64,000 nucleotides of DNA, taken from the NCBI GenBank assembly GCA_031285625.1, contig JAITVV010000084.1:1-64000 (forward strand). The letters are read 5' to 3'. The notes under the pieces are model-generated. The model searched no databases and was not told the DNA's origin. It saw only the letters and a list, made by a program, of their open reading frames with translations. The position numbers were made by a program, and so were the translations under genes. This document shows positions 5,804 to 24,591 of the stretch, piece after piece (the stretch's first letter is position 1; every line of letters begins with the position of its first letter). The DNA comes from Prevotella sp. (GTDB taxonomy: Bacteria; Bacteroidota; Bacteroidia; Bacteroidales; Dysgonomonadaceae).

Positions 5804-8800
5804 TTATTTCGAAATCTTTGTGGTCACATTCTTATTAGTTATAATATGTGTTATCGCAGAATACGGAATCAGTTTATTACCTTGTAATCCTCTTATGGCT
5901 GTTTGCAAACATGGATCATCCATATCCGACATGAAATCATAAGTGATATCCAAATCAACTTTCTTTCCTGTAGGTAGATCGTTGTCATCCAGTTCGTCCA
6001 CCAGATCAGCTAGAGCCGGAGCTTTCACTTTGAATTTAATCTGCATCACACCCGTCGGCAATACAAAACCACCCGAACCATCTGATGCACCGGCAATAAT
6101 CAATGTATTAGGAGCATCACCTGCTTCTTGTGTCATAAAGACTGGAACAGGAGGAGTGGAGCTACCTGAGGTCTGTGTATATGCAAAGCTACCCGGCACA
6201 TAAGTAAATTCCTCATTGAAATCTACATTCAGGTACATATCTGTAATATTAGCATTGGTATTAGTAACAGTATACACAACTTCAATCTCATCATCTGATT
6301 TATAGGCCGCATGACTATATGTAGGATTCATTACCACTTCATCCTGACGCTGCTGCCACACTGCAGTAAAAGAGGTATAAGGATCTTTCGTTTCTCTGTC
6401 TTCACTATAAAGAGACTTCTGTACAGTAGCATTACTTTCAATAATTTCATAAGCTATATTCCCTCTATTATTATATACTGCACTTGGTGCATCTTCGTCA
6501 AGCAGAGCGGTTGCCCTCAAAATCAAAGTTGTTTGCCCGGGAACAACCAGTCCGTCAATCTTCAATTCTTCACCGTTACCGGATGTTGCAGGATTAATTT
6601 GAGGATCGAATGCAGGATTGTGGTCACTACTGATAGCATCTAATCCGAATGAGCCAATTTCCCATTTCATCTTTTCAGGTAAAATATCACTAAAATTGAC
6701 TGTTACCGGATCACAATTCACATTTCCAATATAGAATGAATATTCCACCGGATCACAAGTAGTGACTTCGCGCTCCTTTACCTGTTTTCCAAATGATAAA
6801 CCATCTTCATTAATTGTAGGTGGAGGCGGTACCGGACGCAGAGTGATCGGAGAAATATATATTTCTTGTGTTGACGATGTTGCTCTACCTGTAGTCCTGT
6901 ACTTAATAGTTACACTTGTCACTCCCCCTTTAAAGGAAACATTTACCATACCGTTCTTGTTACTAGCAGACACGCCTCCTCTTTTGGTTACAGTAGCTCT
7001 ATTTCCCGATATTTTGTATCTCGCCTGATTGGGTTTACCTGCAAAGCTCAGTGTAGGTACATAATTTCCGTTCGAACATCCTCCGATTATCTCAACTTCT
7101 TCAAAAGATCTGGATGAGCAATCAAGATCGGAAATCGAAAATTCAGGAATTACAGGATGATTAAATGTAATTGTAACAACGACATCCTGATTGATATTTC
7201 CACCTCTACGTTGAACACGTAAACTTCCTTTAGCCGGTGTATTTACCGAACGTGGATATCTACGGTTCGCTCTTACATTAGTAGGGTATGCAACCTTCGT
7301 TTCGGTAACCTGAATATTATCACCCAGATTTACAGGAGTATTAACTGTAAGGGTTAGCCCTGTAGCCGTCGAAGTGTTGGTATTGGACGTCCATTGCGTC
7401 CATGAGAATTGTTTCGAGCCTGTAAACTGCGCATCTTCGTCAGCAGCACAACCATCCGAATTGGCCTTGTAGCCAAAAGTAACATAGGTACCCTCAGCAG
7501 ACAAAGTATAAGCGCATTGAGGTTCGCCATTCAGCCAATTCATTGGAATTACCGCTTTAAAATTACCATAATTGGGATTACCCGGGATAAGAGCTGTTGA
7601 GTCGTCGGCAATTATCATAACAAAATCATTGCCTTTATTGATCACGTTATACAGATCTCCAGTAGCAGGGTCCCCTGAAGGTTCCTGTCCAAGGTTATTT
7701 GTCGAGTTGTCTTGCAATCCGATAAGTACTGAAATTGGGCGGTCATTGTTTGACACTTTATGCAAAAACCATCGTCTGTTAAAGATCGACTCAAAGTCAC
7801 CACAAATATCAGCATCTGCAACAACTGTTGTACCTTTTCCGTGATTATCGCCCCATATAACAGCTTCTCTGTCATTATCAAAAGTACCTACCTTACTACT
7901 ACCATCAAAATTCAACGATTCTCCCGCAACACCAACATGAAGTATAGAACCTACTTCGGTAGAGTGCGACTGAGTATTATTTAAAAGAGCTATATCGTCA
8001 CGTATAATTGCTGCAATATTATGATAGTAACGATAAGGAGAACCTACTGGCGAAGACAGTCCGGGCCATAAAGATGTACCATTAGACAATTTGTAATCGA
8101 ATCGCGGAGCAGAATAATCTGAGGAGTTAGGATTTAATGTAAGTCCGTATTTAAGAGCATAGTAGGAGTTTACCATTGCTCTTTCGTCATCAGTCAATGC
8201 CTTTTCATACATCACTACTTCCGATACAAGTCCTCTCAACGAACGGGTATGGTAACGGCTACCTCCTAGAGATCCGTTCCCATTCATATACCAAGTACCG
8301 GCTCTAACGCTACTACCATATACACCATATGCCATATTAAAACCTACAACAATATTGTTTGCCGGTATAGTACTACCAACATTTGTAAATTGATAAGACG
8401 AAATCGTAGTTGAACCGGGATTGAATAATTTTGCATCTATATTAACAGCAACATTCGTCCTTAAACGTGGCCGGCCATCTCCATTACGAGACTGAATACC
8501 AAATGTCGGCAAATATTGAGTATAACCAGTCAATACCTCAGGATTATGAAAAGATATCATATAAGTATTATCACCATCACTCGGACGCAAAGCACTATTC
8601 ATTACCATAAAAGTAGTACTATTAACAGGTTTTCCGGTGCTCATAGGACCTTTGGTTGTAGATAAGAATGCTGAAAATCGGTTTGAACTAGAATTCGTAC
8701 CCCAGTCAGTATAAAAATCAATTGCAGGATGATAGTTCATTAAGTAGTGTATAGGAATATAAACCGGTGTACGTATATCAGCATTGGAATTATTTTTACT

Positions 8801-10369
8801 ATAGACTGTCGTTCTGGCAGGGTCTGTATCCCTCCATTGTGTAACTCCGGTTTGTGTTGCAGATGGTGCATTCAAACCATCCCATGCAATTGAATAGCTT
8901 TTATTATAATCAGGGAGAGTCATTCCCTGAACCAATGTCAATGAATTAGGGTCATCGGCCCTCAGCCACATTTTCAGACCGATAGGCACACCACCGGGAC
9001 CTACTTTCATACCTGCAAACCTAACATACTTGTAGGTATCAGTTATTTCCACATCATGAAAATAACCATCGCTACCCACAGGATAGGCTTTAGTTGTCGA
9101 CGGATCAAAATCGGATGTAGTAGATACAAAACAATATGAAAAACCACTCGCTGAAAAATTCACTTTCATTGTTGTTGCATTTGTCAGCTGCGCTTTATAT
9201 TTAGCCCCTACTACATTCAAATCATTAGGGGCTATCAGTGGATCAATAAAAGTTCCTTCTGCATATACAGTACCTGTAGCGATTGTATGAGCTGTTTCGC
9301 TGGCACCATCTGAACCGAAAACGAGAAACTGTTTGTCGTTCAATTCATTTGTCGTAAAAGCCGGATTTTGGTCATTCAAGTCAGCAAGGTTACCTACAAA
9401 AACTATAATACCAGCATCTGAAACACTGCTACTTTGTACCTGATTAAGCATACTGGCATCATCACGCCCTATACCAAAAATATTTTTATCAAAGGCACTG
9501 TCCCTATTCCAAAGAGTGAGAAGCGATGAGCCATCTGTATCATAAAGCTCATAGTTATCGTTATTATCCAGATGAATTCCGTATTTTATAGCAAGATAAG
9601 TATGGATTTTACGTAGGTCGGCAGCATCAATATGGTTATTTGTACCTCCGGTTGCATTCAGTATTATTATCTCCTGAACATTACCTTCAAAACCGTAACC
9701 GGACGAAGCACTACTACCGTTTGCTCCAATTGTCCATTTAGAACTAATACCACTGGAACTCAGATAGCCACCTGTAGTTGATTGACTAAGACCATCTACA
9801 TATCCCAGCACTGTTGCAGAAGAGGAATTATTAGCAATACTGACGGCAACTATTCCTTTTCCCTGGGTACTTGCAACAGTACTCCTACTGGTACCCGGCC
9901 AATATAACCTCAAATCATTATTGTCATTTTCATAAAATACAAGGTCACAGTCTGCATTACCATCATTAAATGAAAACAGGTAATCATAACGTTGATCGTC
10001 CTCTCTTTCATATACTATAATTGCTGTTACATTATCACCTCGGCTTAAACTCATCGTATTAGCACTTACCAGCCTGTTAAAGGCATTTGTATTATCTTCT
10101 TTGGCAAAATATGCAGACTGATGATAATTGAATCCTTTTACTTTATTGGGTGCAGCGTGATTAGTTACGCTCGATTCAAAAAAACTACCAGCAGAAAGAG
10201 CTCCTGTGATATTATTAACCCAGGTACCGTTGCTATAGTTATTGGGTGTTAGCCAGGCCCTATAGTTGGCAGTTACCCCACCCGGACTTGGTTGAGCCTG
10301 AGCCTGTATGGGTAAGACGAGGGATAGGAATATCACCCCCAATATTAATTTTAAATATTTAGTATTCAT
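5804..10369 (-). CDS. Large secreted beta-rich protein with two LamG-like repeat modules and a DUF11-like Ig domain (putative surface protein or adhesin)
   Basis: Signal peptide; two copies of PGGV...WL...G.(V/I).E(I/V).....Y(L/Y)A.KYG..L...RDD...LN..QS; KQV...VEYSFYI.N....V.FSDILP. Confidence 0.75.
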   Translation of the reverse strand: MNTKYLKLILGVIFLSLVLPIQAQAQPSPGGVTANYRAWLTPNNYSNGTWVNNITGALSAGSFFESSVTNHAAPNKVKGFNYHQSAYFAKEDNTNAFNRLVSANTMSLSRGDNVTAIIVYEREDDQRYDYLFSFNDGNADCDLVFYENDNNDLRLYWPGTSRSTVASTQGKGIVAVSIANNSSSATVLGYVDGLSQSTTGGYLSSSGISSKWTIGANGSSASSGYGFEGNVQEIIILNATGGTNNHIDAADLRKIHTYLAIKYGIHLDNNDNYELYDTDGSSLLTLWNRDSAFDKNIFGIGRDDASMLNQVQSSSVSDAGIIVFVGNLADLNDQNPAFTTNELNDKQFLVFGSDGASETAHTIATGTVYAEGTFIDPLIAPNDLNVVGAKYKAQLTNATTMKVNFSASGFSYCFVSTTSDFDPSTTKAYPVGSDGYFHDVEITDTYKYVRFAGMKVGPGGVPIGLKMWLRADDPNSLTLVQGMTLPDYNKSYSIAWDGLNAPSATQTGVTQWRDTDPARTTVYSKNNSNADIRTPVYIPIHYLMNYHPAIDFYTDWGTNSSSNRFSAFLSTTKGPMSTGKPVNSTTFMVMNSALRPSDGDNTYMISFHNPEVLTGYTQYLPTFGIQSRNGDGRPRLRTNVAVNIDAKLFNPGSTTISSYQFTNVGSTIPANNIVVGFNMAYGVYGSSVRAGTWYMNGNGSLGGSRYHTRSLRGLVSEVVMYEKALTDDERAMVNSYYALKYGLTLNPNSSDYSAPRFDYKLSNGTSLWPGLSSPVGSPYRYYHNIAAIIRDDIALLNNTQSHSTEVGSILHVGVAGESLNFDGSSKVGTFDNDREAVIWGDNHGKGTTVVADADICGDFESIFNRRWFLHKVSNNDRPISVLIGLQDNSTNNLGQEPSGDPATGDLYNVINKGNDFVMIIADDSTALIPGNPNYGNFKAVIPMNWLNGEPQCAYTLSAEGTYVTFGYKANSDGCAADEDAQFTGSKQFSWTQWTSNTNTSTATGLTLTVNTPVNLGDNIQVTETKVAYPTNVRANRRYPRSVNTPAKGSLRVQRRGGNINQDVVVTITFNHPVIPEFSISDLDCSSRSFEEVEIIGGCSNGNYVPTLSFAGKPNQARYKISGNRATVTKRGGVSASNKNGMVNVSFKGGVTSVTIKYRTTGRATSSTQEIYISPITLRPVPPPPTINEDGLSFGKQVKEREVTTCDPVEYSFYIGNVNCDPVTVNFSDILPEKMKWEIGSFGLDAISSDHNPAFDPQINPATSGNGEELKIDGLVVPGQTTLILRATALLDEDAPSAVYNNRGNIAYEIIESNATVQKSLYSEDRETKDPYTSFTAVWQQRQDEVVMNPTYSHAAYKSDDEIEVVYTVTNTNANITDMYLNVDFNEEFTYVPGSFAYTQTSGSSTPPVPVFMTQEAGDAPNTLIIAGASDGSGGFVLPTGVMQIKFKVKAPALADLVDELDDNDLPTGKKVDLDITYDFMSDMDDPCLQTAIRGLQGNKLIPYSAITHIITNKNVTTKISK

Positions 10370-10532: not shown

Positions 10533-11093
10533 TTATTTCAAACTTTTCCTAAAAATATATGCCCAAATTAATCCGGCTATTGCACCAGACAAATGTCCTT
10601 CCCATGAGATTCGGGTATCTCCCGGAAATATGCCCCATACAAGGCTGGAGTAGAGGATAAGAACAATGACAGAAACAATTATCAACTTGAAATTTTTACT
10701 AAAAAAACCGGCGAAAACAAGAAATGAAGCCAGTCCGTATATAACAGAACTGGCTCCTATATGCCATGAAGGACGTCCTATAATCCATGTAAGAAGCCCT
10801 GCCGTAATCCAAATAAGGCTGTATATAAGAAATACTTTCTTTTTGTAAAAGAAGAAAACCAAAGTGGTCAACACCACCATGGGTATAGAATTAGCTATTA
10901 AATGCTGAAAATCACCATGAATGAAAGGCGACGTAATGATACCTAAAAGCCCGTCAACAGAACGAGGAAAAACTCCTAATGAGTAAAACTCAAGCCCAAA
11001 AAGCCATTGTACTATATGAACTACCCAAAAGACAAGTACAATAGACAGGGCATACTCCAATGATTTTTTTATCTCTCTGACGGATTCTTTCAT
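10533..11093 (-). CDS. Rhomboid intramembrane serine protease
   Basis: Multi-TM; SPFIHGDFQHLIAN, HIGASS (catalytic Ser), SWEGHLSGAIAG (catalytic His). Confidence 0.9.
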   Translation of the reverse strand: MKESVREIKKSLEYALSIVLVFWVVHIVQWLFGLEFYSLGVFPRSVDGLLGIITSPFIHGDFQHLIANSIPMVVLTTLVFFFYKKKVFLIYSLIWITAGLLTWIIGRPSWHIGASSVIYGLASFLVFAGFFSKNFKLIIVSVIVLILYSSLVWGIFPGDTRISWEGHLSGAIAGLIWAYIFRKSLK

Positions 11094-12044
11094 CTAATAA
11101 TCGTCACCTGCCATTTGAGTCATTATTCCGTCAATATAATTGACATACTCATTCAGCTTTTCAGACTTCTTGAGTGAAGTATCTCTAACTAAAGGTAAAT
11201 CAATATCGACAACGGTATGTATTCTTCCCGGATTAGCGGCCATAATATATATGCGGTTACTCAAAAGAACAGCCTCGCTAATATCATGTGTCACGAATAT
11301 AACAGTAGGATCTAGTGTTGCACTGTTATATATATTCAGTAATATATGCTGCATGCTCGATCTGGTAGCAATGTCCAATGCTCCAAACGGCTCATCCATC
11401 AGAAGAATCTGAGGAGAAGCAATCAGACTACGTGCAATAGCTACACGTTGCAATTGACCTCCTGAAAGTAAAGGATATTTTGCCCACTTCTGTCCATGCC
11501 CTTCCAGACCAACAGTCTTAAGCATTTCGTTTGCCCTCTCATAACTTTCTTCTTTAGATACTCCACGCATCTTAAGAGGCAAAGCAATATTATCAAGAAC
11601 AGACATCCACGGAAAGGAAGAATATTGCTGAAAAACCATTGGAATGGTGTCTTTTTCAGTTTTCTCTTTTCCATATATCATTATCTTCCCGCTTGTGGGT
11701 TGCTGTAATCCGGATATATAGCGTAATAACGTAGATTTACCACAACCTGATTCACCTAATATAGATATAAATTGCCCCTGCCCCTTAAAGTCTTTAATAT
11801 CCATATTCAGATCTTCGAATAAAACAAAATCTGATTTCTTACCGGGATAGACCTGTCTTATATTTTGCAGGTTTATTACATCTGTTTCTTCATATATGTC
11901 GCTTGACGGAGATGCTGGTGTGGAAACAAAAACAGAAGTAGTCGCAATTTTTATTTCCTCCGGTTGAACTTGCTCTATATTATTATTCGTTTCCTCTTCG
12001 TTACTCTGATTAAATATATCTGATATTGAGTTTCTTTCTTCCAT
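11094..12044 (-). CDS. ABC ATPase, NitT/TauT (TauB/SsuB-like) family
   Basis: GESGCGKST, LSGGQ, ILLMDEPFGALD, VTHD; acidic low-complexity N-terminal extension of about 55 aa. Confidence 0.92.
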   Translation of the reverse strand: MEERNSISDIFNQSNEEETNNNIEQVQPEEIKIATTSVFVSTPASPSSDIYEETDVINLQNIRQVYPGKKSDFVLFEDLNMDIKDFKGQGQFISILGESGCGKSTLLRYISGLQQPTSGKIMIYGKEKTEKDTIPMVFQQYSSFPWMSVLDNIALPLKMRGVSKEESYERANEMLKTVGLEGHGQKWAKYPLLSGGQLQRVAIARSLIASPQILLMDEPFGALDIATRSSMQHILLNIYNSATLDPTVIFVTHDISEAVLLSNRIYIMAANPGRIHTVVDIDLPLVRDTSLKKSEKLNEYVNYIDGIMTQMAGDDY

Positions 12045-12051
12045 TTCTTCT

Positions 12052-12909
12052 TTATTTTGATGATTTAAAGAACAGACCTTTCAGTATACTATCTTTATTG
12101 TATTTTGACGGAAATAAAAGAATATCCAGATATTTGAACAAACGGTCTTGTAAAAAACCAATAAGTATAATCAAAAACAATAAAGCAAAAACTTCAGGAG
12201 TTCTGGACTGACGCCCTAATGTATAAATCATAGCTCCTATTCCACCTTCCTTATTCAACAACTCCGCTACAATGATATATGTCCACGATATAGCAGTGAT
12301 TACACGTATATCTTCAGAAATTTTCTCAGTTACATACGGGAAATAAACATGGCGAAATTTCTGCCAGTTTGTAGCGCCAAGAGTCTGTATTGTCTGCAAA
12401 TAGACATAGTCTTTACTATTTGACGGATTCTGTAATTCATTTATTCGTTGAACGATGATTGGCAACAGATAAATAAGGATACCAAAAGAAAGGAAGTATA
12501 CTTTCATATCAAAACCGATTCCAAACCAGGCTATAAAGATACCTGTAATAGCTGTTAAAGGAAGGAAACGGATAGCATCGATATACTGGCTGAATAAACT
12601 TTTGGCAATAGGGAACATACCTATAAGAAAGCCAAGCGGCAAGGCTAATACAATAGCTGTGATATATCCTAAAATATTGAGCTGTATAGAATACCATGTA
12701 TTTCCCGCTAAATCATAATCAGTAAAAAGCTCTCCATATGATGTAACAACCGCAAGTGGATTAGGTAAAATTTTGCTTGGAATAATATCTCCTGTCAGTG
12801 TAAGCAAATACCATACTACTAACAAAATAACTAACCCGACTAAAGCAATAATGGTGGAAGTAAGCTTATTTATACTTCCACCCATTTTAAATAATTCTTT
12901 TATATTCAT
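12052..12909 (-). CDS. ABC permease, NitT/TauT (TauC/SsuC-like) family
   Basis: ILPNP..V, EAA-like loop TIQTLGATNWQKFRHVYFP, W..IIVAELL...GGIG. Confidence 0.9.
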   Translation of the reverse strand: MNIKELFKMGGSINKLTSTIIALVGLVILLVVWYLLTLTGDIIPSKILPNPLAVVTSYGELFTDYDLAGNTWYSIQLNILGYITAIVLALPLGFLIGMFPIAKSLFSQYIDAIRFLPLTAITGIFIAWFGIGFDMKVYFLSFGILIYLLPIIVQRINELQNPSNSKDYVYLQTIQTLGATNWQKFRHVYFPYVTEKISEDIRVITAISWTYIIVAELLNKEGGIGAMIYTLGRQSRTPEVFALLFLIILIGFLQDRLFKYLDILLFPSKYNKDSILKGLFFKSSK

Positions 12910-12927
12910 GATTTGAATTACACGTTA

Positions 12928-14457
12928 TCAATCAGTAACAAGTTGAAAATCTGTAGTTCTGTAATTAATATCAGATCCCACTACTCCGTTATCTACAGCA
13001 TGCTTAGGTCCATTACCTACCACAATAAAACGGTTGCGATCAAACTGATATTCACGTACAAGATAATCTACGACAGATTGGGCACGTTGTTTTGACAAAG
13101 CCACATTTGAATTGTAGTTACCTGTATTATCCGTATTTCCTTCAACACGGATACGGGCTCCGCTAAATTGTTTTGCAATAGACACAAATTCCTGGTCGAT
13201 AAGACCTTTTGCATCATTAGATAATCCAGATTGAGCAACAGCAAAGTTGATTGTTAATTTCTTATTAGAGATTGCCTCTTTACGTTCAACCTCAGCAGAG
13301 GCTTTACTGAATGTTGCAGCAGCTTCAGCTGACTGATCTCCTTTTATATTACCTTGTTGTTCCAGTTTTTCTATAATCTTAGGATAAGAAACCCGCCTCC
13401 AGGCCATAGGCTTCTTAGTTAATTTCAAAGATTCATACACACGTGCCATTTTACTGTAAAGATCATCACCTTTAACACCTGTATAATTTGTATTCAGACC
13501 ATAAAAGTTAAGCTCATCCCCTAAAGTAGCAAAACGAATATTCTTCACACCTTCAATACAGAATGCTTCATCTGTACCAAAGCCTTTAGCAAAATATCCG
13601 GCAGCCTCTTTTACGGCAGATGGATCATCATTCATCTTAGAATTTGCATAAAGAATTGCGCTTACAATTTTTGCTACATCATCCTGATTTTTATCAAGGA
13701 AATCTTCTTTGGCTATCAAACCGTCACAAATAATGTTTGTTGCCTGTTTTGTACTAAGCAAAACTTTAGCACCTTTCACAGCTTCGACGCAATCGATATC
13801 ATCCGGCGACCATGTAACACAAGCATCTACCTGAAGAGCCTTAAACATCTGAGCTGCTTCAACTCCATTCTCGACTTTTACAAGTGTAATTTCATCCGGA
13901 TTGATTTCATTTGTCTCCAAAGTGTTGATTAACAAAGTGTGTGCTGCAGTTCCTTCTGCTACTGCTATTTTCTTACCTTTAAGGTCAGCAACTGTATTGA
14001 TAAATCTGTTCACAACAATTGCATCAGCACCACGAGACCAGTTCAACAACATGAAGTGACGTACATCTGTCATATCTCCACTCTCAGACATTTCTGTAGG
14101 CAAAGCATCTGCCGTACAGTATATCATATCGACTTCACCTTTCTTCAAACCGTTACGGCCGGCAATAAAATCATCCTGAATTACTATATTCAGCATAATT
14201 CCATATTCTTTTGCTATAACAGATTCTTCGTTTGGTTTTAATCCACCATTCAACCATATGATAGGAGTAAATCCGGCATAAGTATTTACACCAACTGTGT
14301 ATGTAGGCATTTTATTGCCAAACAATCCACCTTTTTTACCCGAATCCGAGCTACCGCCCATTATACCACTATCACGTAAATAAATGATAGCTCCAGCAAT
14401 TATTGCTACTACTAATACGGTTAAAGCAACTTTAACCCAAGGTCTAACATTACCCAT
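12928..14457 (-). CDS. Membrane-anchored NMT1/SsuA-like substrate-binding protein fused to a C-terminal OmpA-like peptidoglycan-binding domain
   Basis: N-terminal TM with no lipobox; WSRGADAIV..INTVADLKGKKIA..GT; IRVEGNTDNTG...N..LS.QRAQSV..YL OmpA-C motif. Confidence 0.88.
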   Translation of the reverse strand: MGNVRPWVKVALTVLVVAIIAGAIIYLRDSGIMGGSSDSGKKGGLFGNKMPTYTVGVNTYAGFTPIIWLNGGLKPNEESVIAKEYGIMLNIVIQDDFIAGRNGLKKGEVDMIYCTADALPTEMSESGDMTDVRHFMLLNWSRGADAIVVNRFINTVADLKGKKIAVAEGTAAHTLLINTLETNEINPDEITLVKVENGVEAAQMFKALQVDACVTWSPDDIDCVEAVKGAKVLLSTKQATNIICDGLIAKEDFLDKNQDDVAKIVSAILYANSKMNDDPSAVKEAAGYFAKGFGTDEAFCIEGVKNIRFATLGDELNFYGLNTNYTGVKGDDLYSKMARVYESLKLTKKPMAWRRVSYPKIIEKLEQQGNIKGDQSAEAAATFSKASAEVERKEAISNKKLTINFAVAQSGLSNDAKGLIDQEFVSIAKQFSGARIRVEGNTDNTGNYNSNVALSKQRAQSVVDYLVREYQFDRNRFIVVGNGPKHAVDNGVVGSDINYRTTDFQLVTD

Positions 14458-14491
14458 ATTTTAATGTATTTCAATTAAGTTAAACTTATTT

Positions 14492-15532
14492 TTATTTGTC
14501 GAAGTATTTCACATCAGAATCAGGATTCTGTGTCATACTTTTGCTCTCGATTGTTTTATATTCATTCGGTGAAAGATAAACAGTTTTTTTACTTTCATTT
14601 ATCTTTACATTATTTTCAAATGTCTTGAAAATACCTTCAATACCCAGTTCATTATACTTATCTATCAGCTCGCTACCTTTAAATGAAGCCACTTCATTAT
14701 CTGCCTCAAACTGGTCTATCAGACCTCCAGTGCTACTGATAACACGTTCCATTTCACCCAGTTTCATTTCAATATCGGTACGCATTGCTTCCAAAGCCTC
14801 ATTAAATAAGGCTAATTCATCAGGATCGCCTTCCATAACAGACATTACAGACTTGAATAGTTTATGTTGACTCTTAGCCATTTCATACTCTTCTTTCTGC
14901 ATATTCACCTCATTACGTGTGTCCAAAACAGTTAGCTTTGCCATCTGACTCAGTTTATCCAATGACTCATACCAACGTTTCGAATCCTTAAGTAATCCAA
15001 GAAGCTTATTAATATATTTTTCGAGACGTGCAATCTGGCGTTCATCAATTACCGCTGCATCTTTATTTCCTTTAGCACGATATACCTGTGCACGTTGGAG
15101 AAGCTTTTCCATCTCTTCCTTCTTCGAGTCAATAGATCCTTCAAGCTTGCGTATTTGCCCCAACAGACGTCCCATGCTTTCATTCATCTTTTGGATAGAT
15201 CTTTCCATCATGCCCAAACGACGTTCGATTATGGCTATAGGATCGATATTCACAAACCAGGAAGTTATTTTACGCATAAGGATAAAATATCCCACACTTA
15301 TAACTTGTCGGAATTTTTTATCGAAAAGTAAAAATATGATGAGCCCGATGATTAACAGCAAAATACCAAAATACAATGTATTTTCAGCGAGTTCAATCAG
15401 ATAAGGCAATATTTTGTATAAGAATATAAGAAACCCGACTCCAAGCCCTGCCAAGACCGCAAGACCTAATTTTCCACCGGGCTGCTCCCATAATTTCTTC
15501 TTTGGAGCCTGACTTCCATCTAATTGTAGCAT
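14492..15532 (-). CDS. Two-TM membrane protein with a long PspA/IM30-like coiled coil
   Basis: Two N-terminal TM helices, then DPIAIIERRLGMMERSI..M...LLQRAQVYRAKGNKDAA, resembling the PspA DP...L / A..G..DLA pattern. Confidence 0.65.
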   Translation of the reverse strand: MLQLDGSQAPKKKLWEQPGGKLGLAVLAGLGVGFLIFLYKILPYLIELAENTLYFGILLLIIGLIIFLLFDKKFRQVISVGYFILMRKITSWFVNIDPIAIIERRLGMMERSIQKMNESMGRLLGQIRKLEGSIDSKKEEMEKLLQRAQVYRAKGNKDAAVIDERQIARLEKYINKLLGLLKDSKRWYESLDKLSQMAKLTVLDTRNEVNMQKEEYEMAKSQHKLFKSVMSVMEGDPDELALFNEALEAMRTDIEMKLGEMERVISSTGGLIDQFEADNEVASFKGSELIDKYNELGIEGIFKTFENNVKINESKKTVYLSPNEYKTIESKSMTQNPDSDVKYFDK

Positions 15533-15535
15533 TTT

Positions 15536-16267
15536 CTAGTTCGTTTTAATTATAGTTTCTATTTTCACTTTATCTCCATTTAGTTGATTTACAATTTTAT
15601 CAACTGTTGCATTGAAATTAGCTTCACGTAAGGCATAGTCATTTTTTTTCTCAACTATTTCCATATTGGTCTCGGTAACAAAAGCAGTTAACTTTTGTAT
15701 TTCAGCTTTCATTTTTTCGATATTACCAATAGCCTTATTTATTTCAATTTCTTTCTTATCTACATTTTGCTTACGTAGATTATTAAGTTCGTTCAGTCCC
15801 TTCTTTCTTTCTTGCTCCATTAAATCAATATACTGATCTATGGTTTGACTGAGACTTTCTACAGTCAGAGAAGGAAATGTGGCTTTCAATGTAAGATAAG
15901 CCGTAGTGAAACGGATCGTTTCATCAGGCTGTATACCTTTCAATGAATCTACAGACCGTTTAAACTTCACATAGTCTATGCCATCAGCCATTTGCCGGCC
16001 TAGAACATCATTACACAGTTTATCCATCAACTCCTGATCAGCCTTGCCTGTTATTTGGGAGGGATCGAGGGGTTCCGTCATTGACAATTCTGATAGACCT
16101 GCCATATTTGGCATACTAGACACTGGAGATTTAGGCAAAGGAGGAGGCGTTGCCGGAGCATCTTTGCGCAAATTTGAAATTCTTTCAGGCTGTTTCGCCG
16201 GTTCTTCTTGCTCATTAGAACCTTCGTCAACGAAAATAAGTTTCTTCAGCCAATTGGATTTACTCAT
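15536..16267 (-). CDS. Hypothetical coiled-coil protein (amphipathic N-terminal peptide, Pro-rich linker)
   Basis: 243-aa ORF; WLKKLIFV N-terminus, PATPPPLPKSP linker, heptad-rich C-terminal half; 3 bp from the next gene. Confidence 0.75.
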   Translation of the reverse strand: MSKSNWLKKLIFVDEGSNEQEEPAKQPERISNLRKDAPATPPPLPKSPVSSMPNMAGLSELSMTEPLDPSQITGKADQELMDKLCNDVLGRQMADGIDYVKFKRSVDSLKGIQPDETIRFTTAYLTLKATFPSLTVESLSQTIDQYIDLMEQERKKGLNELNNLRKQNVDKKEIEINKAIGNIEKMKAEIQKLTAFVTETNMEIVEKKNDYALREANFNATVDKIVNQLNGDKVKIETIIKTN

Positions 16268-16780
16268 TCTTTATAACTGTATAATCAGTATGTTTATGAA
16301 TCAAAAGTATTAATCTCTATGTCGCACCAAGTGTAGCTTTATCTTGAGTCCTGTAAGCTTGTAACTCCTCTAGCTTTAAATAACAAGGAGGTTGTGTTTC
16401 TCAGTATGACAAAAAGAATGACCTAAACAGTCATGGTAGCAAAAATAATAAATATAATGCAATTATCTAAAAACTGCATAAAAATATTTCATATTCAAGC
16501 TATAAGTTATCTTTTACAAATACAGATTTTAACAAATCATTCATTAAATTGTCCTAAATGATAATTCATTCACCAAATTCTTAAATAGTTTTTTCATTCT
16601 AAATATATTCTTATTTTTGTATCAAGGGGCATTCCTTAAATCAAAGACAATTACAGGATAGCTAAGCCAGAACTACACCACAGCATTAATATATACTAAT
16701 CTGGCAGGAAATTGAATAATTTTCATCATCCAGTAATGTCAAATAAAGAAAAAAATAACGAAATTTGAGAATTCATATCT

Positions 16781-19700
16781 ATGAGACACCAATCTTTCGG
16801 TTTAATGAGAACATATAAACTCTTCTTAATTTGCTTACTATTTATTTTTTCTGCAAAAACATCGCTTGCAGTATATACTGTACATAAAGCATATAAGCTA
16901 GACCTGTCAAACAATGCTATTTTATGTATGTATCAGGACAACAACGGTTACATGTGGTTTGGTACATATGATGGACTAAATTTGTACAATGGCAAAAGCA
17001 TGTTTGTATACAGGTTTGAGATGGATAATAAAAACTCTCTGTGCAGTAATATAATTCACAAAATATCTCAGGCAGATGAAGACAATCTATGGATATCCAC
17101 TTTTTTAGGTCTTAATAAATTTTCGTTGAAAGAGAGGAAAGTAACAGAATCGCATACAGAATGCCCTGAGGCCAGGCTATTAGCTTCTGATAGTAAAGGA
17201 AATACATGGGTTATATCAAAAAAAAATTACATATCATACTATACACCTAAGGTTAAAAAATTCAGAGACATTCATTTGCCGGGAGTTAGCACAGAAAATG
17301 TTATAGAATTATTTACTGACAACGATGGTAAGCTTTATTTGATAATGACTGATGGAAGCATTAAGAATATAAAGATCTCAAATAAATCAGGCAATGATCT
17401 GGAACTGGATGTTAGCGACACAAAATTTCATAACAAAAGTATAATCAGTGCTTTTTACCAAAGTAATGAAATGTATTTTGTCGACAATGAGAGGAAACTA
17501 CATTTATTTAATCCCTCTCAAAAAACAAAAATATTTCTTGCTGACCTATCTAAGTTGCCTAATAATGGACGTATCTCCAATATTCTCTCTTTTAATGACA
17601 ATCTCTTCATTTCATTTAATAGCGGTGCAATTATCAAGCTGAATGTACAGAAAGATTCATATGAGGAAATTACCAGCTCCGGCGTTGGTATATATTGTAC
17701 GATTAAGGACAAGAAACAAGATTTACTGTGGATAGGGACAGATGGCCAGGGTGTGCAATTATACCATCAAAGCCACGAAATGTTTAAAAATATAACACAC
17801 GAATATTTACCAATAAAAACACAAAAACCGATAAGATCAATTTATACCGACGAATATGACAATCTTTGGATAGGGACAAAAGGTGATGGTTTTATACAAA
17901 TCAAAAATTATAATGACATAAATGCTCATCCTCTGTATAATCGTTATACAACCGACAATGGACTATCCAACAATTCCGTTTTTTGTTTTCTACGAAGTAA
18001 ATTCCACAATGTAATATGGATTGGTACCGAAGGACCCGGATTATCATTTTACTCCTACCGGGACAATAAAGTGAAAACCTTATCCAGCGACCAGATTGGT
18101 AAAGTTCATTCTATATGTGAAGTTAATTCGTCAACCTTATGGCTAGCCACAGCAGGAAATGGCCTCCTGGAGGTCTCTTTAAAAGAAGAGAATGGGACGC
18201 TCTCTGTTAAATCTGTCAACGAATTTTTCCCCAAAAAAGGAGATAGAATATGTAATGAGTTTCATTCTATGTATTATGATGGCAAGTCTACCATATTTGT
18301 AGGTAGCAGAGGAGGATATGGCGTTGTCCGCTTCAATATAGAAAGTAAGCAATACGATTTTATTCAAATGAATAAGAACGAAAACTCGGCTATTGGTGAC
18401 GTGCTTAGCGTTCATTTCAGTAAAGATTCCATATTTTATATTGGAGCCAGTTCCGGGCTGACAAAAATGCAACTACTTCCTAATGGTAATAACCAGATTA
18501 AACAATTTGACAGAAGAAGTGGAATAGCTAATGATATGATCCATGGAATTCTTGAAGATGAAGATGGGTGTATATGGTTAAGTACAAACAAAGGTTTAAC
18601 AAAATATAATCCCCATAACGATTTCTTTCACAACTACTCTCACCCAGAATTATTAGTAACCGAATTTTCGGACGACGCTTACTGGAAGAGTCCTCAAACA
18701 AACAGATTATTTTTTGGAGGAATAAATGGATTGGTCTGGGTAGATCCGAATGAAGATTATCCGGCAAACAGCTATGCTCCTGAATTATTATTCTTCGATC
18801 TTAAAATATCGGGAGAGAGTCATACCTTAGATAATTATATGAATAAAGAAGGGTCTGTTGAAATCCCATCTAATACATCGTCATTCACTATATCGTTTGT
18901 TGCACTGGATTATATTAATGGGGATAACTATGAATATTCTTATATTTTGGAAGACTATAATACGACATGGACTGAATTGCAAAAAACGAATGAAGTAACA
19001 TTTACAAACCTTCCTTACGGTGACTATGTACTAAAGGTAAGATATAAGAATGACGTATTTGGATCGGATGAGAAATATTACTCATTACATATAAGTAAAT
19101 TAGCTCCCTGGTATCTCACAAAATGGGCCATTCTGGGCTATATTTTACTTTTCTTGTTTATCTGCACATATATCATATATCTGATTCGAAAAAAGATAAT
19201 AAACAAGCAAATACTCATTGCCCGGAAAATAAAAGAAGAACAAAAAGAAAAACTATTAGAAGCCAAGTTGAATTTTTTCACAAATATTACCCATGAGTTT
19301 TGCACCCCTCTTACGGTTATAAATGGAGTAACTGAGCATATAGACAAGACGTTGGAGACAAATGACTTGAGAAAATATACAGATGTGCTTCGTAATAATG
19401 TGAATGATCTCAACGAACTGATACAGGAGATACTGGATTTTCGAAAAATTGAAGAATCGAAATTTGAGGCTGGCAACATAAAAAAAGTCTCTATCTCAGA
19501 TATAATGACACGTCATTTAGAATCCTTCATCCCAATTGCAGAACAAAACAATGTAGAACTGAATGCATCCATTCCTAAAAACTTAGAATGGAATACAGAT
19601 ATTTCATGCTTCAACCGTATATTTATTAATCTTATATCAAATGCTTTTAAGTATACAAAAGAAGGTGGCAAAGTAAATGTTTCTGTAGATATTGAAAATG

Positions 19701-20818
19701 AAAAATTAATACTGAAAGTACGAAATACAGGAAAAGGCATAGAGGAATCAAAGATACCCAACATATTTGATCGTTATCGTATCCTTGAAAATATGGAAAA
19801 CAATAGCCTTTACTCTCAAATGACATCACGCAATGGTATAGGATTATCCATATGCCATAGTATGGTAAAGTTGCTACAAGGAGAGATTGAAGTAAAAAGT
19901 GAAATAGATCAATTCGCTGAATTCATAGTCTACTTACCAGTCCTAGAAGCCACAAAACAAACGAATCCCGAAATCCAACAGAGAGAAAATAGCGGAAACG
20001 GAGTTGATACACTTTCCCCTAAACGACCTGAAGATGCTTCCAAACAAACTATTCTGATAGTAGATGATAATAAGGACATTGTATGGTTAATTACAGATAT
20101 ATTATCCGACCGATATATTATAAGAGGGGCCAATACTGTAGAAGAAGCATTAAAGATACTGGAGATGCAAACTCCAGCACTAATTATTACAGATATAATG
20201 ATGCCTAATATTGATGGATTGGAATTTATAAATCGAATAAAAGCCAACAAGTTCACAAAACATATCCCTCTGATTATTATTTCAGCTAAGATCAGCGATA
20301 AAGAACAGGCTGAGGGGCTCAATACAGGAGCTGACGCATATCTTACAAAACCTTTCTCACCAATAGTATTACAGTCACTGGTAAACCGTCTGCTAATAAC
20401 AAAAGAAGAATTGAAAGATTATTATTATTCACCGGAAAGTGCTTATGAATATACAGATGGACAACTCATACATCAGGAAGATAAGGATTTCATGGATTCG
20501 GTCATATCTATAATTGATGAAAATATAGAAGAAGAAAACCTTCGTCCGGAATTAATCGCTGATAAATTAGGAATAAATACACGAAACCTATATCGTAGAT
20601 TTAAGAAAATAACATCACTTCCACCAAACGACTTTATCAAAGATTACAGATTTACGTTAGCTGCCAGACTACTTGTAACAACAAGCCTCACTATTCAGGA
20701 AATCATATACAAGGTAGGTATCACCAACAAATCTTATTTCTACAGGGAGTTCTTTAAAAAATACAATATGACTCCCAAGGAATACCGTTCAGCTGATTCA
20801 GCGAGCAAACCCCAATAG
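16781..20818 (+). CDS. Hybrid two-component system (beta-propeller/Y_Y_Y sensor, histidine kinase, receiver, AraC HTH)
   Basis: MWFGTYDGLN repeats, TM, FFTNITHEFCTPL, ILIVDDN/TDIMMP receiver, AraC C-terminus FFKKYNMTPKEYR. Confidence 0.95.
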   Translation: MRHQSFGLMRTYKLFLICLLFIFSAKTSLAVYTVHKAYKLDLSNNAILCMYQDNNGYMWFGTYDGLNLYNGKSMFVYRFEMDNKNSLCSNIIHKISQADEDNLWISTFLGLNKFSLKERKVTESHTECPEARLLASDSKGNTWVISKKNYISYYTPKVKKFRDIHLPGVSTENVIELFTDNDGKLYLIMTDGSIKNIKISNKSGNDLELDVSDTKFHNKSIISAFYQSNEMYFVDNERKLHLFNPSQKTKIFLADLSKLPNNGRISNILSFNDNLFISFNSGAIIKLNVQKDSYEEITSSGVGIYCTIKDKKQDLLWIGTDGQGVQLYHQSHEMFKNITHEYLPIKTQKPIRSIYTDEYDNLWIGTKGDGFIQIKNYNDINAHPLYNRYTTDNGLSNNSVFCFLRSKFHNVIWIGTEGPGLSFYSYRDNKVKTLSSDQIGKVHSICEVNSSTLWLATAGNGLLEVSLKEENGTLSVKSVNEFFPKKGDRICNEFHSMYYDGKSTIFVGSRGGYGVVRFNIESKQYDFIQMNKNENSAIGDVLSVHFSKDSIFYIGASSGLTKMQLLPNGNNQIKQFDRRSGIANDMIHGILEDEDGCIWLSTNKGLTKYNPHNDFFHNYSHPELLVTEFSDDAYWKSPQTNRLFFGGINGLVWVDPNEDYPANSYAPELLFFDLKISGESHTLDNYMNKEGSVEIPSNTSSFTISFVALDYINGDNYEYSYILEDYNTTWTELQKTNEVTFTNLPYGDYVLKVRYKNDVFGSDEKYYSLHISKLAPWYLTKWAILGYILLFLFICTYIIYLIRKKIINKQILIARKIKEEQKEKLLEAKLNFFTNITHEFCTPLTVINGVTEHIDKTLETNDLRKYTDVLRNNVNDLNELIQEILDFRKIEESKFEAGNIKKVSISDIMTRHLESFIPIAEQNNVELNASIPKNLEWNTDISCFNRIFINLISNAFKYTKEGGKVNVSVDIENEKLILKVRNTGKGIEESKIPNIFDRYRILENMENNSLYSQMTSRNGIGLSICHSMVKLLQGEIEVKSEIDQFAEFIVYLPVLEATKQTNPEIQQRENSGNGVDTLSPKRPEDASKQTILIVDDNKDIVWLITDILSDRYIIRGANTVEEALKILEMQTPALIITDIMMPNIDGLEFINRIKANKFTKHIPLIIISAKISDKEQAEGLNTGADAYLTKPFSPIVLQSLVNRLLITKEELKDYYYSPESAYEYTDGQLIHQEDKDFMDSVISIIDENIEEENLRPELIADKLGINTRNLYRRFKKITSLPPNDFIKDYRFTLAARLLVTTSLTIQEIIYKVGITNKSYFYREFFKKYNMTPKEYRSADSASKPQ

Positions 20819-20830
20819 TATCCCAAAAAA

Positions 20831-20880
20831 CAAAAAGAGTATCCTGATTTACCACACGTAGATCAGGATACTCTTTTTGT
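20831..20880 (+). terminator. Hairpin terminator after the HTCS, built from inverted operator copies
   Basis: CAAAAAGAGTATCCTGAT...ATCAGGATACTCTTTTTG. Confidence 0.7.
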
Positions 20881-20922
20881 CAATTAGAATATATAAAGAT
20901 ATATTTATATTTATTAACATTG
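20867..20922 (+). promoter_or_regulatory. Candidate HTCS operator and -7 promoter for susC
   Basis: GATACTCTTTTTG-N7-GAATAT with TAACATTG 48 bp after the first GATAC; same geometry as 26323-26378. Confidence 0.65.
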
Positions 20923-20972
20923 CATTAATGAAAAAATAGTGCCACATCTTACTTTTTTTAATCTTATATACT

Positions 20973-21190
<218 letters not shown>

Positions 21191-21206
<16 letters not shown>

Positions 21207-21233
21207 CTTCCGAGGCAGGGCTTTGCTTATTTA
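21191..21233 (+). terminator. Terminator/attenuator-like hairpin in the susC leader
   Basis: 13-bp stem GCCTTGCTTCGGA/TCCGAGGCAGGGC with two G-U pairs, loop TAACT, followed by TTTGCTTATTTA. Confidence 0.6.
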
Positions 21234-21344
21234 TTAACCTTTAAAAACCATATTTATGTAAACATCGAAAAATCATCCCACAATCAAATCAAAAAGAGTA
21301 ATCTCTTAAATAACTAATTCAAGTTAACTAAAAAAAATCATATT

Positions 21345-24300
21345 ATGAGAAAAAAATCTGCAAGTAAAGCTTCGGGTAAAGAATATGGAAGAAGGGTACT
21401 TTTCTTATTCCTTTCTCTGATTTTCTTTCAATATTCATTTGCATCGTCACCAACAATAACGAAAGATGTGAATGAAGACCTGAGCATCGAACAAAGTAAC
21501 ATAACCGTAAAAGGTACAGTAAAAGATGATACAGGAGAGCCGTTAAGCGGGGTCAGCGTTGTAGTCAAAGGAACTACAACAGGAACAATCACTGACCTTG
21601 ACGGCGCATATACTATAAATGTACCGAATGCGAGTTCTACACTTGTATTTTCGTTCATCGGATTCCATAAACAAGAAATTACTGTAGGTGGAAGAGCTGA
21701 TATCAATGTGGTATTAGTAGAAGATGCTAAAGCCTTAGATGAAGTAGTAGTCGTAGGTTATGGTACTATGCGTAAATCAGACGTAACAGGCTCTATTGCT
21801 ACAGCTAAAGGTAGCGATATCATCAAGGGGCAAACCTTTAATGCTCTTGACGGATTAAAAGGTAAAGCTGCCGGTGTAAACATTTTCTCTAACACAGGAC
21901 AACCAGGAGGGGAAATGCGTGTTATTATCCGTGGTATTTCAACTATCCAAGCTTCAGCAAATCCATTATATGTAGTTGACGGAGTAGTAATGGACAACTT
22001 CCAATTCCTGAACCCAAATGATATAGAATCAATCGAAGTGCTGAAAGATGCCTCTTCTGCAGCCATTTATGGTGCACGTGGTGCCAATGGTGTTATCCTG
22101 GTATCAACCAAACGTGGTGGTAATACAGGTAAAAAAGCACAGATTTCCTATGCCGGATCTATGTCTGTAGGCACTATGGCTAGATATATGGATATGATGG
22201 ATGCCAATCAATGGATGGCGGCCTTTAAGCAAGGGCTCGAAAACTCCAACGCTTGGCGGGGAACTAACTATACGACAGATTTATCTCAGATATTTACTGA
22301 CGAACGTCTCTTCAATGCTGATGGTTCACCTAAATATAATACCGATTGGCAAAAAGAGGCTACACGTACTTCTTTCTCACACAATCATCAGGTTAACATT
22401 CAGCATGGTGATGAAAACTCATCTGTAGGAGCTTTCCTTAACTACACCGATCAACAAGGTATTGCACTCAATTCTTACATGAAGCGTGTGAATGCTAAGA
22501 TGGCCTATGATGCCAAACCAACAAAATGGTTATCAACAGCCGTTAATTTAATGGTAAATCACACCTGGGGTAACCGTACATCAGACAACCCATACGGACA
22601 AGGTGTATTGCGTACCATGATAGAACAATTACCGTGGCTGCCGGTACAATTGGATGGTGAATATATGCAAACAAATTCTTATAAAACAACCTCAATTCCC
22701 GTTGATCAAAATAACCCAGGTGGCAAAACTCAAGGATTCGCTCCGGAAGCAATGGGTAATCCGGTGGAGATGCTGAAACGAACTGTGAATATGCAATACA
22801 GAACTCAGATTTTCGGTAATGCAGCTCTTACATTCCATCTGGCAGAAGGTCTTGACCTGAAAACACAGTTTGGTGTTGACTATCAAAACCAGCGTGAAAA
22901 GAAGTACGAACCATCCACTCCGCGCCCTATACTTGGTCTAAATTCTCTCGGAAGGGCTGAGGCTAACAATGGTAATACCCTTTATTGGCAGGAAGAAACT
23001 TACCTGACTTATACTAAAACATTAGGTAAAAATTACATAAACGCTATGGCGGGTATGTCTTGGCAAGAACGCGACTATACTTATTTCAAAGGTATTGGTA
23101 CAGGATTCGGTGATGACTTTTATGAATACTATAACATTGGTAACGGAACAGAGCGTCCATCACTTGAGAGCAAACATGAGAGATGGACTATGAACTCATA
23201 TTTCATGCGTATAGCCTATTCACACGATAATAAATACATGGTTACAGCAACAGGTCGTGTCGATGGTTCATCCAAGTTCGGACCAAATAATAAATATGGT
23301 TTCTTCCCTTCTATTGGTTTGGGATGGATGGCTTCTAACGAAAATTTCCTGAAAGATAATACAATTATCAGTAAACTGAAACCTCATGCATCTTTTGGAG
23401 TCACAGGTAACTCAGAAATAGGAGTATACGCTTCTTTACCAACACTAAGTCAAAGCAAAGTAATTATTGGTAATCAATTGCAGATAGTATCCTATCTGGA
23501 CAAGATGGCCAACCCCAACCTGAAGTGGGAAAGAACCAACCAATGGGATTTCGGTGTAGATCTTGGTTTGTTTAACAACCGTCTTAACATAGAAGCTTCG
23601 TATTACTATAAATATACTACCGATTTGCTTCTTGAGCGCCCATTACCTAAATCAACAGGTTTCGCTAATGTGACAACGAATGTAGGAGAGGTTTCTAACC
23701 GTGGACTTGATTTATTGATCAATGCATACCCAATAGATAACGCTTCTCTAAATTGGAACACTACTCTTAATTTAAGTTTTAATAAAAACCGGGTTGAAAA
23801 ACTAGATCCAAGCTCGTCTGTTGACCCTCTTACAGGCAAACGCCAGATACTTAAGGATGGTTTTACAAATTACGAAATGCTAATCCGCGAAGGAGAAGAA
23901 CTGTCTACATTCTACGGATATAAAAGAGCTGGAATTTATGATGGTAACCCTGCCAATTGGGATGCTGAGACAATGAATATACCATCAACTATAGGTGAAA
24001 AGGTAACATACAAAGAACGTCAAATTCTGGGTAATGGTTTGCCTGATTGGATGGGATCATTTATCAATACTGTCAGCTATAAAAATTTCGACCTTACACT
24101 CGATCTTCAATTTTCATGGGGAGCCGATATAATGCAAGAGTTTTTCCACTCTACCGAAGGACGCTTCCTAACAAATGGACTTGATGGTCTATACACAAAT
24201 GCATGGCATCCGACGTTAAACCCTGGTGGTACTTCACAAGCCATACGCTTACAGAATTTCGGTATGGGTAGTAATGCGGACGCAGATGACACATGGGTTT

Positions 24301-24560: not shown

Positions 24561-24591
24561 TCTGTAATAATAAATATAAAATCATAATCAT

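Follow-up and report, generated by a model that had tools for sequence, protein, structure and literature searches.

The window analyzed here is a 64,000-nucleotide stretch of the Prevotella sp. contig JAITVV010000084.1 (positions 1 to 64,000 of the forward strand). Its minus strand carries six co-directional open reading frames (ORFs), numbered P1 to P6 in the order of transcription: P1 (15536–16267, 243 aa), encoding a predicted coiled-coil protein; P2 (14492–15532, 346 aa), encoding a predicted membrane protein similar to PspA and Vipp1; P3 (12928–14457, 509 aa), P4 (12052–12909, 285 aa), and P5 (11094–12044, 316 aa), encoding the binding protein, permease, and ATPase of a putative ABC importer; and P6 (10533–11093, 186 aa), encoding a rhomboid protease. 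The gaps between consecutive genes from P1 to P6 are 3, 34, 18, 7, and 0 bp. The coordinates and gaps given for these six genes in a first-pass annotation, made by a model from the sequence alone, agree exactly with the ORF list, and its domain assignments, i.e., an anchored substrate-binding protein with an OmpA-like domain, a permease, an intact ATPase, and an intact rhomboid protease, are upheld by the Pfam, hydropathy, and motif data. The first five of these genes appear to form a conserved envelope operon, whereas the sixth likely does not belong to it.

In order to compare the gene order, we collected related loci from one genome per species (GTDB) using two peptide patterns of P2; 104 stretches matched the patterns and 26 loci were confirmed, all of them from Bacteroidales save one from Saprospiraceae. 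The gene content of each locus was established by tblastn with the six window proteins. P1 lies directly upstream of P2 in all 26 loci, with an operon-like spacing of −4 to +15 bp (the two genes overlap by 4 bp in L019, L021, and L024). In 13 loci (L001–L005 and L017–L024) P2 is followed by P3, P4, and P5 in this order; in one more (L006) P3 starts after P2 and the contig then ends, and in L025 the contig ends within P2. The five-gene order is kept across clades with the P2 identity of only 31–43%.

The same order is found outside the bacterial chromosomes. A tblastn search with P2 against 50,697 phage records yielded 16 matches, 15 of which are all 15 Prevotella Lak megaphage records (36–37% identity, E about 1e-49), and the sixteenth is the Ralstonia jumbo phage RsoM2USA (25% identity, E 2e-14); among 72,556 plasmids, one match was obtained, Burkholderia pM7012. 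In three out of three examined Lak genomes (Lak-A1, Lak-B7, and Lak-C1) all of P1–P5 are present in the same order, with identities to the window copy of 36–37% for P1, 37–38% for P2, 56–59% for P3, 47–48% for P4, and 39–46% for P5. The proteobacterial elements have shorter arrangements: in RsoM2USA, genes for a 211-aa coiled-coil protein, a 308-aa P2-like protein, a 122-aa transmembrane (TM) protein, and an NMT1_3 binding protein without a wall-binding domain; in pM7012, genes for a 219-aa coiled-coil protein, a 326-aa P2-like protein, and a 392-aa N-terminally anchored protein with SBP_bac_3 and LysM domains. The P2-like protein of RsoM2USA matched only itself and the 15 Lak records among the phages, and that of pM7012 matched only itself among the plasmids. 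Peptidoglycan-binding domains have, hence, been found on the binding protein in two independent lineages, and they belong to different families (OmpA and LysM).

Two further differences were seen in the Lak genomes. In Lak-B7, three extra small ORFs lie between P3 and the permease gene (L028, 12228–13591), with one 150-aa ORF at the same place in Lak-A1, and a second, partial ATPase-like match is located approximately 1.3 kb downstream of P5 (16658–17008).

Judging by the gene order, which is the same in 13 related bacterial loci and three phage genomes, the arrangement of P1–P5 is more than a chance neighborhood, and the association of the coiled-coil genes with the ABC triad, proposed in the first-pass annotation for this genome, extends well beyond it. 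The P1/P2 pair appears to be the invariant core, and a membrane-anchored binding protein, its most frequent companion. On the same grounds, the conserved unit is formed by five genes (P1–P5), not six.

The latter distinction concerns the rhomboid gene, which the first-pass annotation had included in the module. P6 itself is intact and abuts the ATPase gene (0 bp, same strand), as had been stated: the match to the Rhomboid family (PF01694) scores 80.7 bits against the cut-off of 22.6, the catalytic residues are in place (GASS with Ser115, and H167), as are the motifs HLSGAIAG and HLIAN, and the protein is not a rhombosortase (37 bits against the NCBIfam cut-off of 84). However, apart from the window, only Dysgonomonas sp. 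521 (L001) has a rhomboid gene after the ATPase gene in the tblastn comparison, which makes one out of 13 triad loci and none of the three Lak loci. Downstream genes vary among the eight of 13 triad loci scanned with Pfam (CvpA-like protein, EF-P, aminopeptidase, SecA, and others), and the upstream genes vary too. Since the rhomboid gene is missing from almost all loci and the downstream genes differ, it lies outside the conserved unit and, as far as gene neighborhoods indicate, is a Dysgonomonas-specific neighbor rather than an operon component. A six-gene machine in which the rhomboid would process the membrane anchor of P2 or P3 could be proposed from the zero distance, the common strand, the intact catalytic Ser and His, and the adjacency kept in Dysgonomonas sp. 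521; still, 12 of the 13 triad loci and all three Lak loci do without it, and the window genome and Dysgonomonas sp. 521, which have it in common, are closely related (92% identity of P2), so that we consider such a machine very improbable.

P2 contains two hydrophobic segments, residues 24–42 and 52–70, and Lys and Arg residues on both flanks of the resulting TM hairpin suggest that both its ends are cytoplasmic. In the AlphaFold (AF2) model, built from an alignment of 36 sequences, this hairpin is followed by a juxtamembrane helix (72–94), a long helical hairpin (98–153 and 157–230), two more helices (239–277 and 281–308), and a disordered tail; the long hairpin is well modeled (pLDDT 80–94 over residues 110–210). 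A Foldseek search of the Protein Data Bank (PDB) with this model returned Vipp1 or PspA as the top nine out of nine matches (E-values 3.1e-3 to 3.2e-2, probability 1.00; the top entries include 9eom, 7o3w, 7o3x, 8qbs, 8qbw, 6zvr, 7abk, and 9hzm), followed by archaeal ESCRT-III CdvB2 and, lower, by BAR and SMC coiled coils. Vipp1 chains reduced to the hairpin superpose on P2 with TMt of 0.81–0.84 and rmsd of 2.4–3.0 Å, e.g., 6zvs_A with TMt 0.84 and rmsd 2.4 Å over 130 columns, and 6zvr_DB with TMt 0.81. In a viral library, the third-ranked match of the model is a phage protein annotated as a PspA/IM30 family protein. The signal of the PspA_IM30 profile (PF04012), although faint, is in the right register, with P2 residues 97–232 falling on profile positions 23–158, and the profile matches eight out of 36 members of the P2 family at E ≤ 0.01 (best 2.5e-7). 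In an hhalign comparison of the P2 family with the single sequence of Escherichia coli PspA, the start of the helix beginning with DP falls on PspA residue 24, at a probability of 2.3%.

Several observations weigh against this assignment. The PF04012 match of P2 itself (25.5 bits, E 1.2e-5) is under the gathering cut-off of 33.9; the profile of the P2 family compared with the PDB yielded no PspA or Vipp1 chain at E ≤ 10, only generic coiled coils; the model is of moderate overall quality (mean pLDDT 66.8, pTM 0.45); and none of its Foldseek matches in the PDB reaches E ≤ 1e-3. The sequence evidence for homology of P2 and PspA is, in sum, weak. Based on the modeled fold and the structural matches, we conclude that P2 either belongs to the PspA/Vipp1/ESCRT-III superfamily, as a member with a membrane anchor, or is closely analogous to it in structure, in agreement with its original description as a PspA/IM30-like protein with two TM segments. 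According to the predicted topology, P2 would sit in the inner membrane via the two-helix hairpin, with the PspA/Vipp1-like domain turned toward the cytoplasm.

The membrane-binding element of PspA and Vipp1 is the N-terminal amphipathic helix, helix 0. Hydropathy and the AF2 model reveal no such helix in P2, whose N-terminus is instead formed by the TM hairpin and the juxtamembrane helix 72–94. Hence, compared with PspA, Vipp1 (IM30), and LiaH (PF04012; 7abk, 6zvr, 7o3w), the predicted domain of P2 has the same long hairpin of helix 1 and helix 2+3 and two further helices, whereas the way of membrane attachment is different; in addition, P2 is below the Pfam gathering score, no partners of the PspF, PspB, PspC, or LiaI type were found near the window operon, and the partner it does have, P1, is of no known fold.

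A profile search shows how large the family of P2 is: among 1.84 billion representatives, 1476 clusters (formed at 50% identity) match at E ≤ 1e-3, of which 677 also match at E ≤ 1e-30; the nearest ESM Atlas clusters are unnamed and come mostly from Bacteroidota. Of 150 listed proteins, 146 were newly retrieved; two or more hydrophobic segments occur within the first 110 residues in 136 of these 146, a motif of the DP[IV]x[IV] type in 108, and an aromatic pair within the last eight residues in 50. When E. coli PspA itself was used to look for homologs, every protein listed was at least 86% identical to it, and its tblastn matches among plasmids are mostly 90–95% identical copies.

The second member of the pair, P1, begins with the peptide MSKSNWLKKLIFV. 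The first-pass annotation had reported this peptide correctly; its description as amphipathic is, on the other hand, weakly supported, because the peptide has a modest helical hydrophobic moment, which is 0.33 in P1 itself (rank 81 among 233 windows) and ranges from 0.27 to 0.55 in the family. A short hydrophobic and basic N-terminal peptide followed by acidic residues is conserved in the P1 family (alignment A3, 21 sequences), and a low-complexity linker, a helical region with the pattern G.DY.E.K ... PDE..R, and a C-terminal coiled coil are also common there. The AF2 model (mean pLDDT 77.1, above 90 over residues 110–240) consists of a helix at residues 5–11, a disordered stretch at 13–62, corresponding to the linker rich in Pro, Glu, and Lys, a three-helix bundle at 78–130, and a single 107-residue helix at 136–242. 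P1 has no Pfam family, with nothing above threshold, and Foldseek with the AF2 model found no matching fold in the PDB (best E-value 1.3). The model thus describes what is, in all appearance, a cytoplasmic coiled-coil protein of no known family, and its N-terminal peptide may serve either for membrane targeting, as a helix, or for docking.

We also considered P1 as a second PspA-like protein and rejected this candidate: an hhalign comparison of the P1 and P2 families (alignments A3 and A1) gave a probability of 13% over 11 columns, and direct comparison by BLASTP gave an E-value of 0.5, in line with the above Pfam and Foldseek results. The check for a PspA/ESCRT-III hairpin that the first-pass annotation had suggested for P1 as well as for P2 is, accordingly, negative for P1.

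P3 is predicted to be doubly anchored. It has a single hydrophobic segment (residues 7–25) and no Cys lipobox; this anchor is followed by a Gly/Ser linker, a domain of the NMT1/SsuA class (approximately 52–370), and an OmpA-like domain (approximately 400–509). In Pfam, NMT1 scores 45.4 bits against the cut-off of 20.5, with NMT1_2 matching too, and OmpA (PF00691), at residues 405–490, scores 50.6 bits against 27.2. The latter domain carries the motif NTDNTGNYNSNVALSKQRA at residue 441, in accordance with the OmpA-like consensus TD..G....N..LS..RA, and the P3 profile matches solved OmpA-like domains with E-values down to 1.1e-12. P3 likely is, therefore, fixed to the inner membrane by the anchor and to peptidoglycan by the OmpA-like domain, as the first-pass annotation had suggested from an N-terminal TM anchor and a C-terminal OmpA-like domain. 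The Lak proteins retain the NMT1 and OmpA architecture. P3 is the most conserved protein of the operon (69% mean column identity in alignment A4, and the highest identity to the Lak copies), which argues for one specific ligand. Its binding domain is nevertheless only distantly related to solved proteins of the SsuA/TauA class, the nearest being SsuA 2x26 (E 7.5e-6) and 3e4r (E 1.5e-4).

In two loci, L017 (9013–10149) and L018 (3474–4610), an extra binding-protein paralog is encoded between P2 and the OmpA-fused P3; it is 378 aa long and has a lipobox-like Cys and no OmpA domain.

P4 is a TauC/SsuC-like permease (BPD_transp_1, 48.8 bits), and P5 matches ABC_tran (103.7 bits) and has intact Walker A, LSGGQ, Walker B, and H-loop motifs. 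P3, P4, and P5 together are, by their domain families, an ABC importer of the NitT/TauT class. None of the three comes near the cut-off of an NCBIfam equivalog for TauABC, SsuABC, or another named importer: the scores are 44.8 against 304 for TauA and 76.9 against 163.5 for SsuA_fam, and the best ones for the permease and the ATPase are 107.8 against 295 (SaoP) and 200.9 against 360 (SaoA), respectively. At the equivalog level, the cluster does not, in agreement with the first-pass annotation, match an already characterized importer. Its binding protein, permease, and ATPase belong to the same Pfam families as those of TauABC, SsuABC, and NrtABC, and SsuA and TauA provide the nearest solved binding domains; the cluster differs in the equivalog scores, in the membrane anchor and OmpA fusion of the binding protein, and in the N-terminal extension of the ATPase.

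This extension, an acidic low-complexity stretch of roughly 55 aa (residues 1–55, encoded at 11880–12044 of the window), is present, at variable length, in 11 out of 11 aligned orthologs of P5 (alignment A5). In the seven more distant ones (from L017–L024 and Lak) it starts with a short hydrophobic peptide of the M..F..L type, similar in style to the N-terminus of P1. Such an extension is unusual for the NitT/TauT class.

The presence of P2 homologs in all Lak records and in a jumbo phage, and of the whole module in three Lak genomes, raises the question of whether the module is of phage origin and serves in phage–host conflict, for example, in superinfection exclusion, in defense, or in maintaining the host envelope through a long infection by a megaphage. 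A full-length match of P3 to the phage family phrog_25518 of unknown function (E 1.4e-50) and one of the ESM Atlas clusters nearest to P1, which is 65% viral, would agree with this. However, the PADLOC defense models match none of P1, P2, P4, and P6 and give only generic domain hits for P3 and P5, and the operon sits in chromosomal surroundings typical for Bacteroidales, with serS, an MBL-fold gene, a gene for a hybrid two-component regulator, and a SusC/SusD pair. The tree of P2 places the Lak clade inside the Bacteroidales radiation (98/98 for the joint clade), though without a firm position there, and would fit transfer in either direction. We assign only a slight chance to this explanation.

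The theme of the operon has computational precedents. Main-text passages of PMC11237479 describe operons that encode, besides TM-bearing homologs of PspA/Snf7 and an AAA+ ATPase, also an ABC ATPase with a permease and a PBPB–OmpA protein binding solutes and peptidoglycan (e.g., OGG56892.1), and suggest, from genomes alone, a link between membrane remodeling and solute transport. The window operon shares with these a membrane-anchored protein of the PspA superfamily, an ABC ATPase, a permease, and an OmpA-fused binding protein. It differs in that the operons in those passages contain Vps4-like or double AAA+ ATPases, whereas no AAA+ gene was found among the six genes, in the window flanks, or among the flanking genes of the nine related loci scanned; the binding domain is of the NMT1/SsuA class, unlike PBPB there; and nothing is said of P1 in the passages. 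A 2026 preprint, again as represented by its main-text passages, reports complete ABC systems beside 15 out of 189 pspA genes of huge phages (10.64898/2026.10.24.761521); in these cases Lak is not named, and no TM-anchored PspA, P1 partner, OmpA fusion, or bacterial counterparts are described. The main-text passages of both papers mention neither the P1 partner, nor a five-gene operon of Bacteroidales, nor its presence in Lak, nor the LysM variant, while their supplementary tables may list the operon or the Lak loci. The statement of the first-pass annotation that no characterized equivalent is known in Bacteroidota is, thus, not supported, as the theme was already described computationally in these two sources, as far as their main-text passages go; no experimental study of this module was found in the literature. 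All in all, the first-pass interpretation is supported in part: the PspA-like fold of P2 and the co-occurrence with the importer genes hold, the membership of the rhomboid and the lack of a precedent do not, and the view of the module as an envelope-stress or damage-sensing machine instead of a nutrient importer is a conjecture.

Taking all this into account, we consider it somewhat better than an even guess that P1–P5 are a conserved envelope operon in which the P1/P2 pair works with the wall-tethered importer and couples solute uptake or sensing to membrane upkeep. On its cytoplasmic side, the inner membrane would carry a complex or co-polymer of P1 and P2; P3, with its two anchors joined by flexible linkers, would span the space from the inner membrane to the wall; and the P1/P2 complex would act together with the transporter fixed in this way. 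The operon would couple uptake or sensing of one specific small solute to local stabilization or remodeling of the inner membrane, a function useful both to Bacteroidales cells and to the megaphages infecting them.

The main competing explanation is that two independent units share one transcript, a P1/P2 pair responding to membrane stress and an ordinary nutrient importer (for sulfonate, nitrate, or a similar compound), in which case the wall tether merely keeps the binding protein near the permease. Several facts count in its favor or against the coupling. In the Saprospiraceae locus (L026) the P1/P2 pair stands alone, followed by a T9SS-type gene instead of the ABC genes, and no permease or ATPase is encoded within about 7 kb of the pair in RsoM2USA and pM7012. 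In ten loci of a Paludibacteraceae clade (L007–L016) no P3 is seen in the remaining 0.3–1.8 kb after P2; nine of these contigs end 0.3–0.9 kb past P2, and that of L015 runs into a transposase-like ORF, so that either a repeat breaks the assemblies or the clade lost the transporter part. Two of them that were inspected, L010 and L015, have after P2 a conserved 53-codon ORF with a single TM segment, the start of which resembles the anchor of P3. Database entries that appear as fusions of P2 with the ATPase or with the binding protein (P0036, P0037, P0100, and P0114) had to be rejected as Rosetta stones, since their junctions fall mid-domain; deletion or misassembly of the operon is their likelier origin. 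Moreover, the transporter has, on its motifs and families, every hallmark of a working importer, and the extra lipoprotein paralog without the OmpA domain in L017 and L018 is of a kind often seen in nutrient systems. On the other side, the five-gene order is retained at low identity of P2 and in Lak, and in both proteobacterial elements a binding protein of a different family still follows the pair; in pM7012 it carries LysM instead of OmpA, which points to selection for the combination. Given this, independence of the two units seems to us possible but rather improbable.

Under yet another explanation, import is secondary or absent: the doubly anchored binding protein would be a trans-envelope tether or sensor, reporting a periplasmic ligand or the distance between the membrane and the wall, and assembly or disassembly of the P2 polymer would draw its energy from the ABC ATPase, in the role that Vps4 has for ESCRT-III. 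It fits this scheme that the partner conserved across phyla is the membrane-anchored binding protein, which has a peptidoglycan-binding domain in Bacteroidales, Lak, and pM7012, the domain families being swapped (NMT1–OmpA in Bacteroidales and Lak, SBP_bac_3–LysM in pM7012), that all aligned ATPase orthologs have the unusual N-terminal extension, and that P2 has a disordered C-terminal tail, with the aromatic pair within the last eight residues in the 50 representatives counted above. The lack of a nearby AAA+ gene, in contrast to the operons in the main-text passages of PMC11237479, can be read in the same way. At the same time, the scheme is wholly conjectural, the permease and ATPase resemble those of a standard type I importer, and the examples outside Bacteroidota are only two, one of which, RsoM2USA, has a binding protein without a wall-binding domain; we regard it as unlikely. 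A bolder form of it, in which P1, P2, and the doubly anchored P3 would make up a ligand- or distance-gated envelope link, with an ESCRT-III-like polymer coupled mechanically to peptidoglycan, the ABC ATPase replacing the Vps4-type AAA+ ATPase, and the megaphage copy holding the host inner membrane together in long infections, appears to us similarly doubtful.

Among the bacterial polymers that repair and remodel membranes, PspA, Vipp1, and ESCRT-III proteins are the main ones known, and to our knowledge little has been reported on them in Bacteroidota. The P2 family would be a large, unnamed, membrane-anchored branch of this superfamily with an obligate partner of no known fold, and in gut Bacteroidales the P1/P2 pair is found in a fixed association with what is likely a wall-tethered ABC importer. 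That the module is complete in all three examined Lak genomes suggests that the advantage it gives can travel from one genome to another. If the coupling holds, the operon would be a concrete example of membrane maintenance tied to the sensing or transport of a solute, and could show a bacterial ESCRT-III-like system with an energy source other than an AAA+ ATPase; if it does not, the operon is still a well-defined target in the search for the ligand of a very conserved binding protein.

As for the regulation of the operon, Dysgonomonas sp. 521 is the nearest named relative, and the sole sizeable upstream stretch conserved between it and the window is a block of 44 nt located 5′ of P1 (16428–16471, minus strand; positions 556–599 of L001), with 93% identity. 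It contains TATTTTTG at 16447–16440, which fits the Bacteroidota −7 consensus TAnnTTTG, and the block is, by inference, a candidate promoter. A further upstream match between the two genomes is inverted and only 14 nt long (E 0.003). A riboswitch or leader RNA 5′ of P1 was considered and rejected, as Rfam gave no match in 16200–16800 at E ≤ 1; nor was there any match at gathering scores in the whole window.

Two divergent copies of the whole module, L002 and L005, come from the same metagenome-assembled genome of Candidatus Azobacteroides, with P2 proteins 82% and 43% identical to that of the window; these could be paralogs, or the bin could mix two organisms.

Upstream of the operon and divergent from it, the plus strand at 16781–26211 encodes a hybrid two-component regulator (Reg_prop, Y_Y_Y, HisKA, HATPase_c, Response_reg, and AraC HTH domains) followed by the SusC/SusD pair; this is a polysaccharide utilization locus with no evident link to the operon. 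On the other side, between the rhomboid gene and the MBL-fold gene, the minus strand at 5804–10369 encodes a 1521-aa protein with a signal-like N-terminus and no Pfam domain at E ≤ 1e-5; as the rhomboid and MBL-fold genes adjoin in L001, its gene looks like an insertion relative to Dysgonomonas sp. 521.

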